A stretch of 64,000 nucleotides of DNA, from the NCBI GenBank assembly GCA_024103355.1, contig JAGFIU010000002.1:4823-68822 (forward strand). The letters are read 5' to 3'. The stretch comes from Bacteroidota bacterium (GTDB taxonomy: Bacteria; Bacteroidota; Bacteroidia; NS11-12g; UBA955). Positions 6,001-12,000 of the stretch are shown here, piece by piece (within the stretch, counting starts at the first letter, position 1; the number at the start of each line of letters is the position of its first letter). The position numbers are program-made.

Positions 6001-9000
6001 GGTGATGGTTATTAACTCTTGATTAAGCTGACGGAAAACAAAGTTTAATGTCCTGCTTTTGTTCAGATTTTCTAGTACCCTCGTTACGGTGCTTTCTTCA
6101 CTTTCTGTACTTGTGGTGCTGGTTTCGGTGTTTACTTCTACCTTTCTATTGCTTACAGATTTTTGCGTTTGTTTGCTCAAAGCTCTGTTGAGGGTTTTGA
6201 TGCTTTCTTCTCTTTCGCTATTGGTTGTTTTACTGTAACTAGCGGAAGCACTTACAGAAATTTTTGGCAAGGGCAAACTCAATCCACCACTAACTTTTTT
6301 GGCAACATTGGTGCTACTTTTTGTATGGGTATTACTTTCCTGTTCTGCAATGGTTTCTAAATCACTTGCACTTTCATCACTAAAGCTGTCTAGCACATTT
6401 TGAACATCTCTTTTGTTAGTTACTGTCTGCTTATAAGTTTTGATAGAAATAGTAGTTTTTTCACCAGGTAACAAGGAGAAAGTTTTAACCGTTTCTCCTG
6501 CTCCGTATCTACCTAAATAGGTGTTTACTCTGTAATGTTCTACTATGGTAATTTCAGGTTTTACAGTGGCAGGTTTTGGTCTGAATTGGATTACATTGTG
6601 TCCTGCCAAGTTGGTTGTAATAACGGGCATTGCATTTTTAGATAGCTCAGCTACCTGATCAACAGGCATTCCTGCCACTTTTATATCAAGCACTGGACCG
6701 GTTGGCACTTCGGCAAGTGTTAAGGTAGCTGCATCAGCAATATTTACCAATGGGCTTACAGAAAGCTGGCTTACTTCAGTACCCATACTGGCAGGTGCAG
6801 TGGCTACAACGCCTGCAAAGCTGTTGGCAATATTGGCTGTAAGTTGTACTGTGTCAATTGTCTGAACTTTGTCGTAATAGCTTTCGCCACTTGGTGGGTG
6901 ATTCGTATAATTAGGCTTAAATTTTCCAGCATCAACAGGTACAGGCAGGTACACATTGGCAACAAAACTTGTGGTTTGGGGAAGGTTGTAATTCAAAATG
7001 GGCAGATTTTCACCGTTACCAAGCTTAATCATAGGCTTAGGGTCGAGGCAGGATGAATTTTCTGGCATAATTATTTGTTTTAAAATTGTTTAACGGTATT
7101 TTATTGTTCAATATTTGATTTCTTGTGTCATTTTTTTGGGTTTAGGTTCTAAGGTTCTGACTAACGTCCGTCATATTTGCAAAGCTTACTTAATAAAATT
7201 ACTAAACTTCCCATTCACAATGTGCCAAAAATAATGCAAAAGCTTTGAAAACAAATACTTTGTTTTTCTTTTATACACCTGAAAACATTCTCAAACCTTT
7301 ATCCGTAGCCGGTTGTTGTAATTTTGTGCAACGGGTTGCAGCTACTCGAAGGTTGCGATTTAGAAGCACTTCACTGTCAACCAAGCAGAAATTTGGGTAG
7401 TAACACAAAGCTTGATTTAACCACTGAACCGCCACTTTTGGGTAGGTGCTGTTATAGGGCGTTTTTCTTGTTAATTGTTCATTTGTCAATGTCGTTTTGT
7501 TGTCAAATTTTATTCTACTTACCAAGTCCGTATTTGTCAACCGCTGGTTGTCCCCATATATTGTCTTTAACTCTGTAGATTGTTTCACAGTCTGTTAATT
7601 GTCCGCATATAGGGTCAGGTTGTCCCCAAGCGAAATTACAAGTACCAATTTGTTTCCCGTCTTTGTCGTAAACTGCACCTCCTGCGTCATAAGCATTCTG
7701 TCCTGCACTGTAAACTGTCTGCCCGTTGTGTTTACATTCACTAATTTCTCCGTTTTTGTAGGTCTTGTAAAGTTTCTTTAAAGTCTTTTTGTTTTCAAAG
7801 TCGTTTTTCTTACAACTCGAAATCCCTATTGACAATATCATTGTTATTGTCAAAATGGTTAAAAGTTTAATTTCCTTTTTCATATTGTCTGTCGTTTTTA
7901 AATGCCCTATAACTTCCGTCCTATTTACGAAGGTTGCATAATAAAATTACTAAACTTCCCATTTACAACGTCCCAAAAATAATGCAAAACCATTACAGTT
8001 AAAAAACAGAACTGCAACTTTTGCAAATATGACAGTTAGTAATCCGACTTTCTCCTATCGTAATTTAATATTATTACAGATTCTTTAAAAAGTTCTCTTC
8101 TGATATAATTTCAAGCGTTGATCCTTTTTCTATAAGTTTTACTGCCTTTTCTTGTTTACTGCTCATTCCGTCATCGCCAACAACCCTATAATCTTGTTGT
8201 CCAACAATTAAAAAGTCTGTGTCTTTTGTAACACTATTCCCAATTATTCCACCAATATCAGCAATAGTTTGTTGGGCCTCTGCACGAACCATTGAAGATA
8301 ACGCACCAGTAAAAACAACTGTCCTACCGTAAAAAATACTGTCAGGATTATGTTTTGTTGGGTCTCCAACAATTTTTGTCAGATCTTTTGCTTTATAAAT
8401 CCTTTTTGTTTCGGATGGTCTGTAACCACCGTCATAAAGTTGTCCAATTGTTGTTTTGAGTTTTTCAGAAAAGTCGTCAATTGATGAAACACCTGCTATT
8501 CCAAACGCCTTTAAAGTTAGTTCAGCAGTTGCTCTACTGTCAGTACCTGCTCTGTGATGTTTTAGATCAATACTATTTACTTTACAAAGCGTTTTTAAGT
8601 CGTAAGAAGGAAGTCCTTGCCAAACCTTTTTAGAAAAAATATAACTACAAGAATAGTTTAAGGTCGGAAATGGTAATTGATATGTTTCAAGTGTCCTACG
8701 TAAAACACTAATGTCAAATCCTGCATTATGAGCAATTAAAAACTTGTTTTCAATAAGAGGTTTTATTTCAGTCCATAATTCGTTGAACTCTGGTTTGTCC
8801 GCTACGTGTTCGGGTCTAATTCCGTGAATTAAAATATTAAAATAGTCAAATTCATCATACTTTGGTTTGATTAACCAAGATCTAGTATCAACTATTTGTC
8901 CGCCCTCAACAAATGTCAATCCAATTTCACAAGGACTGTCTCGCTGTGCAGTTGCCGTTTCAAAATCTATTGTAATAAAGTCCATTTTTTATTGTCATTA

Positions 9001-12000
9001 ATTTGTTTACTGTTGTTCTTTACACTCCTCCAGCCATATTCACAAAACTTGCAAAATAAAGTTTCCCAAACTTCCCATTACAAGTGTCAAAAATATTAAA
9101 TATTTACTCTTTACAACAGGCTAAATCACTCTTTACCGACTTTGGTTTTTATATTTAGAAAAGTGGCGATTGAACTAGTGGGGATCGCGATTATGTTCTT
9201 AGCAATTTTTCTTATTTATATTTATTTTAAATAATCAATTTCAATCCATAACTTTGCCACCGTAAATGCGCTGGTACGAAAAACTTCAAAAGAGATGGAA
9301 AGTTAATACCCTCTGGGATGTAGTAGCGATTTTGATAGTATTTACTTTGACGGGTTTTAGTGTTGTGTTTATTAAGCATTGGTTGGGAATAGGTTCGATT
9401 TCACCTGTTTATTGGAGAATTGTATTTTATATCCTAATACTTCTTCTCTATCAGATACTATTGCTCTTTTGGGGTTTTCTCTTTGGCAAATTCAGGTTTT
9501 TTCTTGAGTTTGAAATGAAGATGTTTAGACGCATAGGAAAAATGTTTAAGAAATAAATAAAATGGAAATTACACCAAAAGAAGTCTTACAGGCATTGTCT
9601 GTTGTTATAGACCCTGATTTCAAAAAAGATATTGTTACATTGGGTATGGTTCGCCATATCAATATTGATGGGAATAAACTGTCCTTTGATTTGGTATTGA
9701 CTACACCTGCATGTCCGCTAAAGGATTTGCTTGAAAAAGGCTGTCGAGATGCAATCAGAGAGCGACTTTCCCCTGATTTTATTGTAGATATCAATGTAAC
9801 ATCTGAGGTTCGTAAAAATATCTTTATGCAAGGCACATTGGATGGAGTCAAGAATGTGATTGCCGTGGCATCCGGAAAGGGTGGGGTTGGTAAGTCCACA
9901 GTATCATTGTCATTGGCTAAGGTGCTTGCGGATTCCGGTGCTAAAGTCGGGCTGATGGATGCGGATATTTATGGTCCTTCTCAACCGACTCTTACGGGCA
10001 CAGAATCCTATAAGCCAACAGGAGTTCAAGGAAAAGATAAAAATCTAATGAAAGCAGCCGAGGTAGGTGGTTTGAAAGTGTTTTCAATAGGATATTTAGT
10101 TGAACCCGGTGTAGCTGTTGCATGGAGAGGCCCAATGATGTCCACTGCTTTGAGACAGTTTGTAAGTGATGTTGCCTGGGGTGAATTGGATTATCTTATT
10201 ATTGACTTACCTCCGGGAACAGGAGATGCTCAACTGACTTTGTGTAGTGCCTTAAAAATTACCGGAGCTGTGATTGTTACTACTCCGCAAAAAGTGGCAA
10301 TGGTTGATGCAGACCGGGCTTTACAGATGTTTAGAATGAAAGGGTTAACAGTACCGGTATTGGGTATCATTGAAAACATGGCTTGGTTTGAGACACCAGA
10401 ATTGCCGGGAAGAAAATTCTATATTTTTGGTGACAGTGCAGCAAAAAAACTATCCGAACAATCCGGAGTTCCTTTGTTAGGCTCGGTTCCAATTATTGAG
10501 AATCTCTCTTCGGATACCCATAAAGGAAGTATTATTGAAAACAATCCTGTACTTCCTTATTTTAAAGAAATAGCAGGAAATTTAGTCCGTAACTTGGCTA
10601 TACAAACACAGCATTTACAAGAGTCACAAACATCTTAAAAACTTTGAGAATATGAGTAATTTTGAATTAACCGTAAAAGTAGAAGAAGCATTGGATTCCA
10701 TAAGACCATTCTTACAGATGGATGGGGGAGATGTAGAATTGGTTGAAATTGATGAAGATAATAATGCCAATATTAGATTAATCGGTAATTGTGTATCATG
10801 TTCAATGAGCGCAATGACAATGAAAGCTGGAATTGAAGGTGCTATTAGGAAAGTTGCTCCTGAAATTAATAAAGTAGTTGCTGTTAATCTATAGCCTTTG
10901 AGAAAATTTCTCAGCAATATTCTTCTTGCGCTATCAGATTTAAGTCTACCTGTTGTCGTGGGTGGCGCAATATGTTTTATGTTTTTTTCTAAATTGCACC
11001 ATGTAGATTTTTTCTATCCAATTATTTGGATTTGTAGTATTGGCATTTTTGCTATCTATCTTTATGACCATTTTTCAGACCTTAGTTCTGTAGGGGAAGT
11101 AAGATATGGTGAGCCATTTTGGATATTATATAAGTTCAAAAAAATATGGTTTGTAATAACCGCGGTGTCGCTGGTTATAGCTTCATATTTGTTTTTTACT
11201 AAGATGAGAGTTGTTTATCTAGAACCCGGTGGGGTGGTAGCATTGTTAGTTTTAGGATACTATTTTTTTAGAAAATTAGCACCAAAAAAATGGCAAGGTA
11301 AATTTAAAGAATTATGGATTTCTCTTGTTGCTACTATGGCGCTTGGAGGAATACCTGCTTGGATTACCAACACTGAGATTCATTGGATTTTACTCTGTAG
11401 TTTCTTTCTGCTTTGTTTTCAAAATATGTTGTTGTTTTCGTGGATTGATTATGAAGCTGACTTGATTAATAACAACCCAACATTAGCGGTGGATTCAGGA
11501 ATCCCTTTTGTTGTTTGGCTTTTGGATATTTTTGCCCTTATTAATATTGCTTTGCTGGCAGACCTATGGTACTCTAATGGTTATACTATTGCAATTCCGG
11601 TTTTCTTTGCGATGCAGATTCAACTCATTACTATTCGAGTTTTTTGTGAATTTAGATATCCAAAACGTATCTATCGATTTTGGACAGATATGATTTTTGT
11701 AATACCTTTAATCACGTTATTGTAGAGATTTATTGAAGGGTATTAAATAAAAAACTCATTCCTCGATTATGGGTTTTATGTTAGCCCTTTCTCAAAGAAT
11801 GAGTTTGATATTATGATAGATTACGTTTTATTACTTCTTCCTACTTTTTGGTGCTTTGTATTCGGGATTTTTTTTTGCATTTTCAATTAATGCATTAAGG
11901 GTTGTTATATAGCTTTGAGCATCGGCTTTTTCAGCGTTTGTTTTTGCAAGTTCAGCAGTTACTACAGCATCATAGTATAGTTTGTTTTCAAATTGAATTT

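Follow-up and report, generated by a model that had tools for sequence, protein, structure and literature searches.

The 64-kb stretch of Bacteroidota DNA analyzed here (hereafter, the window) contains two gene clusters, at 7160–9117 and 48130–50773, that are probably short, recombinase-less arrays of integron-like mobile gene cassettes belonging to a system widespread in Bacteroidota. The genome appears to carry dozens of such mini-arrays. A cassette would comprise a minus-strand gene and a site of ~125 nucleotides (nt) at the 3′ end of that gene. A scan for hairpins bounded by the triplets AAC and GTT, together with a covariance model, revealed four such sites in two loci, and these sites (designated B, A2, C, and A3) are also the best-paired candidates of the hairpin scan in the window. 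The second locus lies 41 kb from the first and presents its elements in the same order. Cargo genes at both loci occur singly on the minus strand and alternate with sites, all of which lie on the plus strand. Each site consists of AAC, a 5-nt spacer, a 19-bp interrupted stem enclosing a loop of ~76 nt, a 1-nt spacer, and GTT. A preliminary description of this DNA had reported four intact sites of 124, 127, 127, and 126 bp alternating with single minus-strand genes. Both the hairpin scan and a model built from foreign sites recovered them at these lengths, and the alternation is borne out at both loci. Locus 1 additionally holds a short site (A1), a decayed copy (A5), and a motif designated M. 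The elements are listed below; amino acids are abbreviated aa, and bit scores for sites refer to covariance model R1.

7163–7264, plus strand: site A1, a short type-A site (AAC GTCC, an 18-nt arm, a loop of ~49 nt, the second arm, TTT, GTT), from direct reading and type-A alignment
7265–7329, plus strand: motif M, 65 nt, non-palindromic, ending in TAATTTTGTGC directly before the AAC of site B
7330–7453, plus strand: site B, canonical GC-richer type (45% GC), lipoprotein cassette, 80.5 bits
7515–7883, minus strand: lipoprotein-like gene, 122 aa, weak DUF6970 match (Pfam)
7911–8037, plus strand: site A2, AT-rich local type (31% GC), exonuclease cassette, 29.4 bits
8074–8985, minus strand: DEDDh exonuclease fused to a BRCT domain, 303 aa (Pfam RNase_T 3.8e-22, BRCT 2.5e-8; PADLOC PDC-S48, 97 bits)
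9030–9117, plus strand: A5, decayed type-A copy, from type-A alignment and repeat family D2/D4
48130–48236, plus strand: A4, decayed type-A copy of the second locus, from type-A alignment
48300–48365, plus strand: second copy of motif M, with 33 nt identical to 7253–7285 and the next 48 nt 88% identical
48366–48492, plus strand: site C, canonical type (46% GC), cassette of the 479-aa nuclease, 51.6 bits
48507–49946, minus strand: 479-aa protein with a weak NERD/Card1/Csx1-like nuclease match near its C-terminus
50104–50229, plus strand: site A3, local AT-rich type (27% GC), HRDC cassette, 25.7 bits
50318–50773, minus strand: HRDC-domain protein, 151 aa (Pfam HRDC 1.4e-15)

The four sites are members of a hairpin-site family that occurs in arrays of other Bacteroidota. 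Model R1 was derived from 63 foreign sites located downstream of recombinase genes, with the closest relatives of site B left out. In the 64-kb window it found only four significant places, all full length and all on the plus strand: sites B (E = 1.5e-17), C (E = 1.7e-10), A2 (E = 5e-5), and A3 (E = 4e-4). The maximum control score was 14.1 bits, in 1.24 Mb of loci picked by an unrelated gene. A fifth match of 16.3 bits (59627–59765) lies inside a 1191-aa open reading frame (ORF) and was taken as chance. Over 126 nt, site B shares 89% identity with a sequence on the Chryseobacterium sp. SNU WT5 plasmid NZ_CP041688.1 (locus L025, 6954–7077); an Emticicia oligotrophica plasmid has a site with 85% identity to B, and B is 90% identical to a site in a metagenome-assembled genome (MAG) of Sphingobacteriales (L101, 12752–12875), where it stands in a recombinase-headed array 1.7 kb behind the recombinase gene. 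Site C shows weak similarity to sites in three other loci (L029, L103, and L049). In the Emticicia copy of site B (L026, 12002–12124), the 5′ arm is of the site-C type and the loop and 3′ arm are of the B type, a mosaic that suggests that chimeric sites form by exchange within the loop.

The site that matches B on the Chryseobacterium plasmid closes a series of minus-strand genes with further AAC…GTT sites of 124–125 nt, and this series is headed by a co-oriented gene for a 347-aa tyrosine recombinase. The recombinase scores 221 bits with the NCBIfam XerA model NF040815 and 207 bits with the integron-integrase model TIGR02249, the latter in two pieces and under the cutoff of 265. Its nearest solved structures are archaeal XerA and then the Vibrio integron integrase IntI4, which is again matched in two pieces. 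Relatives of this recombinase were found at 302 places in species-representative genomes of Flavobacteriales, Chitinophagales, Sphingobacteriales, Saprospiraceae, Cyclobacteriaceae, and Ignavibacteria. We examined 80 of these loci, 43 of which have an intact recombinase reading frame. In the intact loci and the plasmid the linked recombinase is ~345 aa long with XerA as its best match. Hairpins of 123–125 nt that share the asymmetry of 5-nt and 1-nt spacers accumulate downstream of the recombinase at the 80 loci, on the strand opposite to it (163 versus 98 on the other strand; 34 versus 26 in shuffled sequence). The site family is linked in other genomes to a recombinase of the Xer/IntI clade. 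The array on the Chryseobacterium plasmid also contains, beside its 124-nt sites, four copies of a near-perfect palindrome of ~140 nt (AACGGCCAGCTCGGC…GCCGAGCTGGCCGTT; L025 positions 1121–1262, 11277–11416, 13658–13797, and 15753–15892).

No recombinase was detected in the window, either by tblastn with the plasmid recombinase, which gave no match, or with a profile of the 43 recombinases, which reached at best 6.3 bits among all 149 window ORFs of at least 70 aa. A cluster of attC sites lacking integron-integrases (CALIN) is defined as at least two attC sites within 4 kb and no integrase nearby (PMC9024848). Locus 1 has three sites within 0.9 kb and locus 2 has two within 1.9 kb, with no recombinase in 64 kb; this is CALIN spacing at both loci, for sites called with our own model R1 rather than that of IntegronFinder. 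The preliminary description was accordingly right that the window lacks an integrase and fair in calling the arrangement CALIN-like. Its broader proposal of an integron-like, structure-defined gene-capture family gains support from arrays that lie directly downstream of the Xer/IntI-clade recombinase in many Bacteroidota and from the complementarity of cassette ends presented below.

These loci could instead be a CALIN in the strict sense, with true attC sites served by a canonical IntI encoded elsewhere in the genome. AAC/GTT cores, one folding strand antisense to the genes, a length in the attC range, and one gene per site all speak for this explanation, and AAC/GTT cores, a covarying stem, and bottom-strand asymmetry are present in window and foreign sites alike. 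We nevertheless consider it very unlikely. The linked recombinase best matches XerA, and the additional domain of IntI (the I2 helix insertion) was not found in the linked recombinases, which match TIGR02249 in two separate stretches, below the cutoff. An attI site next to intI with a Pc promoter was likewise not found: the window has no intI, and only the conserved non-palindromic module M lies downstream of the cassette genes. The sites are uniform at 123–125 nt, with conserved mismatches and wobble pairs and an iterated loop, whereas attC sites are variable. Surveys moreover report almost no classical integrons in this phylum (PMC9024848): IntegronFinder 2.0 lists one complete integron only in Bacteroidetes, in Salinibacter (PMC9024848). 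Reviews count the phylum among those with integrons detected (PMC8618304, PMC9668308). The GTT ends of the window sites read GTTATAG (B), GTTAGTA (A2), GTTATCT (C), and GTTTACA (A3). The preliminary description gave these sequences correctly and held that they depart from the attC core GTTRRRY, yet the GTTR part is mostly kept, the base after GTT being A in three of the four.

Comparison of the foreign sites revealed a conserved stem. RNAalifold analysis of the 63 sites yielded 19 pairs, 18 of which show compensatory change; at one pair, 60 of 63 sites have G·U, and another pair is either G·U or G·C. In the four window sites 92% of the cells are paired, 12 of 19 pairs covary, and both G·U positions are retained. 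A single mismatch and two G·T pairs are conserved features of the stem. The G–T-compatible arm mismatches noticed earlier are therefore real and sit at conserved positions; the accompanying statement that the arms fall into three unrelated types did not hold, since all arms fit one family consensus and covary as just described.

The same stem identifies the plus strand, which is antisense to the cargo genes, as the folding strand. G·T pairs on the plus strand correspond to C·A mismatches on the other strand. Stem energies, computed under DNA parameters after a tetraloop was substituted for the loop, were −11.1 kcal/mol (plus strand) versus −3.5 kcal/mol (minus strand) for site B, −17.2 versus −15.1 for site C, −9.0 versus −8.4 for site A2, and −6.3 versus −5.5 for site A3. 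The stem of the folded strand is more stable in all four window sites and in 73 of 74 foreign sites. That this strand is antisense to the cargo genes speaks against a structure in the messenger RNA and parallels the bottom-strand rule of attC sites; the sites presumably fold as single-stranded DNA. The loops also have internal order. Their self-similarity across the family peaks at lags of 18–19 (0.34–0.36) and 37 (0.46) over a background near 0.27, and NCAC motifs cluster near site positions 35, 54, 72, and 91 in foreign sites of loci L029–L105, a pattern that site B (window 7358–7430) fits. The loop is thus built of four units of ~18.5 nt, which could be candidate binding sites for the extra N-terminal region of the recombinase or for a host factor.

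The ends of cassettes carry a further signature. For each cassette, the 8 nt that follow the GTT of one site were scored for complementarity with the 8 nt that precede the next site's AAC. Averaged over 59 foreign cassettes, 5.75 of the 8 flanking positions are complementary, usually the first seven, compared with 2.76 ± 0.17 for shuffled partners (maximum 3.39 in 2000 shuffles). The lipoprotein cassette of the window (about 7332–7912) is bounded by the boxes GTTATAGGGC and GCCCTATAAC, which are complementary at 7 of 7 positions. Such ends would be expected from a crossover inside the triplet, because the start of the cassette and the box before its own site then form one palindrome in the excised circle. 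The joint of the excised lipoprotein-cassette circle would read …GCCCTATAAC-(site B)-G/TTATAGGGC….

The lipoprotein cassette recurs in other contexts with breakpoints at the AAC triplets. Contigs from metatranscriptome runs of digesters and sludge contain site B and the lipoprotein gene at 94–95% identity; homology breaks off precisely at 7330 and 7913, beyond which lie other sequences, among them the start of a different site. These runs carry a homologous cassette of another organism rather than transcripts of the window organism. In a contig of the Logan collection (L199), the lipoprotein gene and site B are found at 83.6% identity over window positions 7329–7907, flanked on one side by a different site with a 190-aa gene and on the other by unrelated sequence. 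Two contigs from the Joint Genome Institute (JGI; L197 and L198) contain the lipoprotein gene with the same first and last cassette bases and a different site, and in a further locus (L193) a homolog of the gene stands between two sites, wedged between nitrate-reductase (nar) and nitrous-oxide-reductase (nos) genes. Conversely, the B-type site of the Sphingobacteriales MAG closes, with the same end boxes, a cassette of an unrelated 190-aa gene. The best ApbC match was 51–56% identical (Chitinophagales MAGs), with no close relative in the species collection.

Two runs from one study, X9 and X12, showed zero depth over 7463–7890 with the flanks present, and the exonuclease gene (8105–8990) as a second allele that is ~93% identical. 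Depth in these runs is 3–9×, with the organism itself at 3–5×, and other gaps occur; the pattern may reflect strain-level cassette variation. A joint from 7332 to 7163 was considered as a cassette circle and rejected; it occurs at single-copy depth and is better read as another chromosomal junction between M and type A.

Sites A1–A5 form an AT-rich type (type A; 27–31% GC, compared with 45–46% for sites B and C) that is highly repeated in this genome. Depth was taken from Logan contigs, which drop rare variants, rather than from raw reads. The organism is present in many activated-sludge runs; 12 DNA runs were examined, and the copy ratio was compared in four samples of different absolute depth. 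Words from the type-A loop occur at 55–75 times the single-copy depth of the organism, at a similar ratio in the four samples, and the first ~25 nt of motif M at 70–80 times (four runs). Depth over site A1 is 20–55 times that of the organism and drops to single copy at 7163; over site A2 it reaches ~75 times and drops sharply at 7908–7913 and 8037–8040. Repeat depth thus gives way to single copy exactly at the triplets. Logan contigs of the organism break at every site, and those that abut the repeats have the organism's own depth, some of them being long (15.6, 16.6, and 40 kb), which indicates that the copies lie in the same genome, scattered among unique DNA. A single Logan contig of 40,192 nt spans the distance from site A2 (window 8008) to the type-A remnant of locus 2 (~48200). 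The module of ~170 bp formed by the short site and motif M is present in about 75 copies per genome equivalent. At the junction of M with AAC, at least seven further canonical GC-richer site starts were found in the population, in addition to sites B and C and at least one type-A junction. Exact-word scans gave nothing beyond chance matches for the type-A loop in the genome contig collection and no match for motif M in the genome, viral, or JGI metagenome contig collections, the window's own genome being outside these collections.

This abundance raises the question of whether the palindromes are selfish repeats, similar to repetitive extragenic palindromes (REP and the derived REPIN elements) or miniature inverted-repeat transposable elements (MITEs), that spread alone between genes that are ordinary neighbors. 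The depths of the type-A loops (~55–75×) and of M (~70–80×), the scattering of copies among core genes, the lack of a recombinase in the window, and the weakness of type-A stems all favor this view. Type A and M are indeed high in copy number and specific to the lineage; this does not extend to sites B and C, which are not lineage repeats, and the family spans several orders in recombinase-headed arrays. Gene and site travel as a unit with breakpoints at the triplets, and complementary ends that match cassette by cassette are unexpected for transposing repeats. Direct reading revealed no target-site duplication flanking A2 or A3. Depth indicates that the loop is the best-conserved part of type A while arms and termini vary, which is the opposite of a MITE. 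We therefore judge this explanation unlikely for the arrays as a whole, although it may describe the multiplication of the local type-A/M module. The preliminary description had named, as a sign of REP/MITE behavior, copies scattered between core genes without cassette breakpoints at GTT. Copies are indeed scattered (about 55–80 per genome equivalent), whereas the absence of breakpoints is contradicted by the lipoprotein cassette; because breakpoints at the triplets exist, REP/MITE behavior alone does not explain the data.

Several other results weigh against interpreting the two loci as mobile-cassette arrays. Type-A sites have low scores (25–29 bits) and weak stems (−6 to −9 kcal/mol), and their number and dispersal form a REP-like pattern. 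The arrays look partly decayed: A4 and A5 are degraded copies, and the end boxes of the 479-aa cassette match as complements at just 4 of 7 positions. Neither the distal nor the proximal flanks of the 80 recombinase loci resemble motif M; it has no counterpart there, and we rejected it as an attI shared with recombinase-linked arrays. Whole sites, when folded to minimum energy, do not outperform shuffled sequences (z of +0.5 to −1.9). Folding of both strands, as the preliminary description proposed, thus favored the plus strand for the stem in all four sites without distinguishing whole sites from shuffles, and for this reason the support for structure rests on covariation and stem asymmetry, not on folding energy.

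In each of the five type-A copies, CAAAAATA is conserved and points toward the next minus-strand gene; read on the opposite strand, it is the Bacteroidota −7 box TAnnTTTG. The box is found at 7226 in the loop of site A1, where it faces the 577-aa gene starting at 7068, and at 7974 in the loop of site A2, where it faces the lipoprotein gene. Copy A5, at the distal limit of the array and bordering core genes, has lost its AAC end and 3′ arm and retains the loop with CAAAAATA at 9088. From its sequence, the type-A box may be a promoter directed at the next cassette. The loop of site C (48439–48446) contains CAAAAATA as well, though only M follows on the gene strand; this occurrence may be chance. 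Site A1 was not reported by model R1 owing to its shortened loop. In one JGI metagenome contig (L197, ~932–1001 and 2663–2732), cassettes are delimited by short-loop versions of the site that measure 70 nt and score 40 bits with the model, which indicates that truncated-loop sites like A1 exist elsewhere.

The conserved box prompts two further explanations. The elements might act as RNA or as regulatory modules, namely promoter cassettes, terminators, or antisense RNAs, with their likeness to recombination sites being secondary. TAnnTTTG is kept on the gene strand upstream of an ORF in five of five type-A copies, TAATTTTG at the end of motif M points into the following site, and the covariation would also fit a structured RNA transcribed from the plus strand. 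However, a folding strand that is antisense to the messenger RNAs provides no 3′-untranslated region or terminator for the cargo genes, the two loci have no match to known RNA families in Rfam (the only RNA found in the window is a tRNA-Arg at 43397), and linkage to a recombinase, complementary ends, and mobility as a unit would be left unexplained. We regard this explanation as highly improbable; a promoter role may nonetheless coexist with recombination. Alternatively, type-A elements could be invertons, promoters inverted between flanking inverted repeats. Inverted arms do flank a promoter-like box, and invertons are common in Bacteroidota. Yet the arms are imperfect with compensatory variation, all copies have the same orientation, the elements match the hairpin-site model over their full length, and no strand-change joint was seen in the 12 DNA runs, a weak test in contigs that drop rare variants. 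The chance that these elements are invertons is negligible.

We favor a model in which mobile cassettes are exchanged through structure-defined sites. The site would be formed by the plus strand (the "bottom" strand relative to the genes), and a tyrosine recombinase of the Xer/IntI clade without the IntI insertion, encoded outside the window, would cut and rejoin DNA inside the AAC/GTT triplets, so that an entire cassette would leave as a circle and enter beside another site. Type-A sites would carry a promoter-like −7 box toward the next cassette, and the short site with its M module would be the preferred entry point for new cassettes. Catalysis by an Xer-like recombinase, acting in trans in this genome, is what the comparison of sequences leads us to infer.

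Motif M is a candidate landing pad with an attI-like role, or else the body of a cassette without an ORF; the ~170-bp module as a whole would likewise be a preferred landing place for incoming cassettes or, alternatively, a multiplied ORF-less cassette. At both loci the cassette adjoining M has a site of foreign type and the next cassette has the local type A. Taken as newest cassettes with foreign-type, GC-richer sites beside M and older ones with host-adapted type A, this order fits a dispersed integron, in which ~75 portable modules of ~170 bp, one per 30–50 kb, serve as landing pads for a trans-acting Xer-like recombinase at the junction of M with AAC. We put this forward tentatively, as a possibility that is more doubtful than not. 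If it is true, the site doubles as a mobile promoter and the attI function is itself mobile.

Upstream of locus 1, one additional feature may be related to these sites.

3150–3165, plus strand: AACGGTTACCGCTGTT, a possible remnant of a collapsed site in which the 5′ and 3′ ends are joined, with GTTGTGC before it; weak, from direct reading

This sequence adjoins a fragment of an IS1182/IS5 transposase (2804–3028). Between it and site A1 lies a five-gene minus-strand operon (3310–7068) that has no match in Pfam, NCBIfam, or PADLOC and starts 95 nt behind A1. Site A1 would supply the promoter box of this operon, which may be a large multi-gene cassette, with the remnant marking the far end of the island.

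In integron theory, the IntI-specific domain is the key to recombining folded sites. If cassettes with hairpin sites are indeed moved by an Xer-like recombinase throughout the phylum, folded-strand gene capture has evolved or persists without that domain. Such a system would account for the movement of accessory genes in Bacteroidota, including the nuclease and HRDC genes found here and, in Chryseobacterium, resistance genes reported beside "XerD" (PMC11194056); standard tools would undercount cassettes in environmental and gut members of the phylum. The Chryseobacterium resistome study placed "XerD" beside catB-tetX clusters, with cassettes and sites unrecognized (PMC11194056). We found no description of a hairpin-site cassette system in the open-access literature searched. 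The window adds a genome in which a small repeated module has distributed sites to dozens of places and in which assemblies break at every site. What is new here is the AT-rich local site type with its promoter-like box and the ~170-bp module of short site and M, with many different sites joined at the junction of M with AAC.

The closest parallels are classical integrons and CALINs such as the chromosomal integron of Vibrio cholerae with its ~125-bp repeats (VCRs). In these, as in the system described here, single-gene cassettes end in a structure-defined palindrome with AAC/GTT cores, the strand antisense to the genes folds, and the start of a cassette is complementary to the box before its own site. 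Integrase-less arrays also occur in both, as does a homogeneous host-specific site type (type A here) beside foreign types. In contrast to classical integrons, the linked recombinase lacks the IntI insertion, is closest to XerA, and is co-oriented with the cassettes. The sites have a near-fixed length, with a conserved mismatch and G·T pairs, and not extrahelical bases, as the demonstrated features of the stem, a loop of four ~18.5-nt units, and complementarity of the ends that extends 7 nt beyond the triplet. In this genome, moreover, sites are dispersed in dozens of mini-arrays, some with promoter-like boxes. Because linked arrays lack a recognizable integron integrase and the site differs in these defined ways, the system would best be classified, judging from sequence, as following the integron principle in a new form and not as part of the integron family itself.

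Two groups of mobile elements outside integrons share some of these features. REP/REPIN elements with their RAYT transposases and the Correia elements of Neisseria are imperfect palindromes of ~100–150 bp that occur in tens to hundreds of intergenic copies, sometimes with promoters. These elements are lineage-specific and move alone, whereas two of the site types described here cross orders, occur in recombinase-headed arrays, and move with a gene. In the pdif modules of Acinetobacter plasmids, genes are bracketed by inverted pairs of 28-bp double-stranded dif-like sites for XerC/D. Xer-type recombinases are implicated in moving small gene modules in both systems, but the sites here are 125-nt hairpins, presumably single-stranded, in one orientation. 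Finally, insertion of cassettes at attG sites outside integrons is a known route by which cassettes are scattered from the platform (bioRxiv 10.1101/2022.09.11.507474). The route described there involves IntI and classical attC sites; the junctions described here instead feature a recurrent ~170-bp module rather than arbitrary genomic GTT sites.

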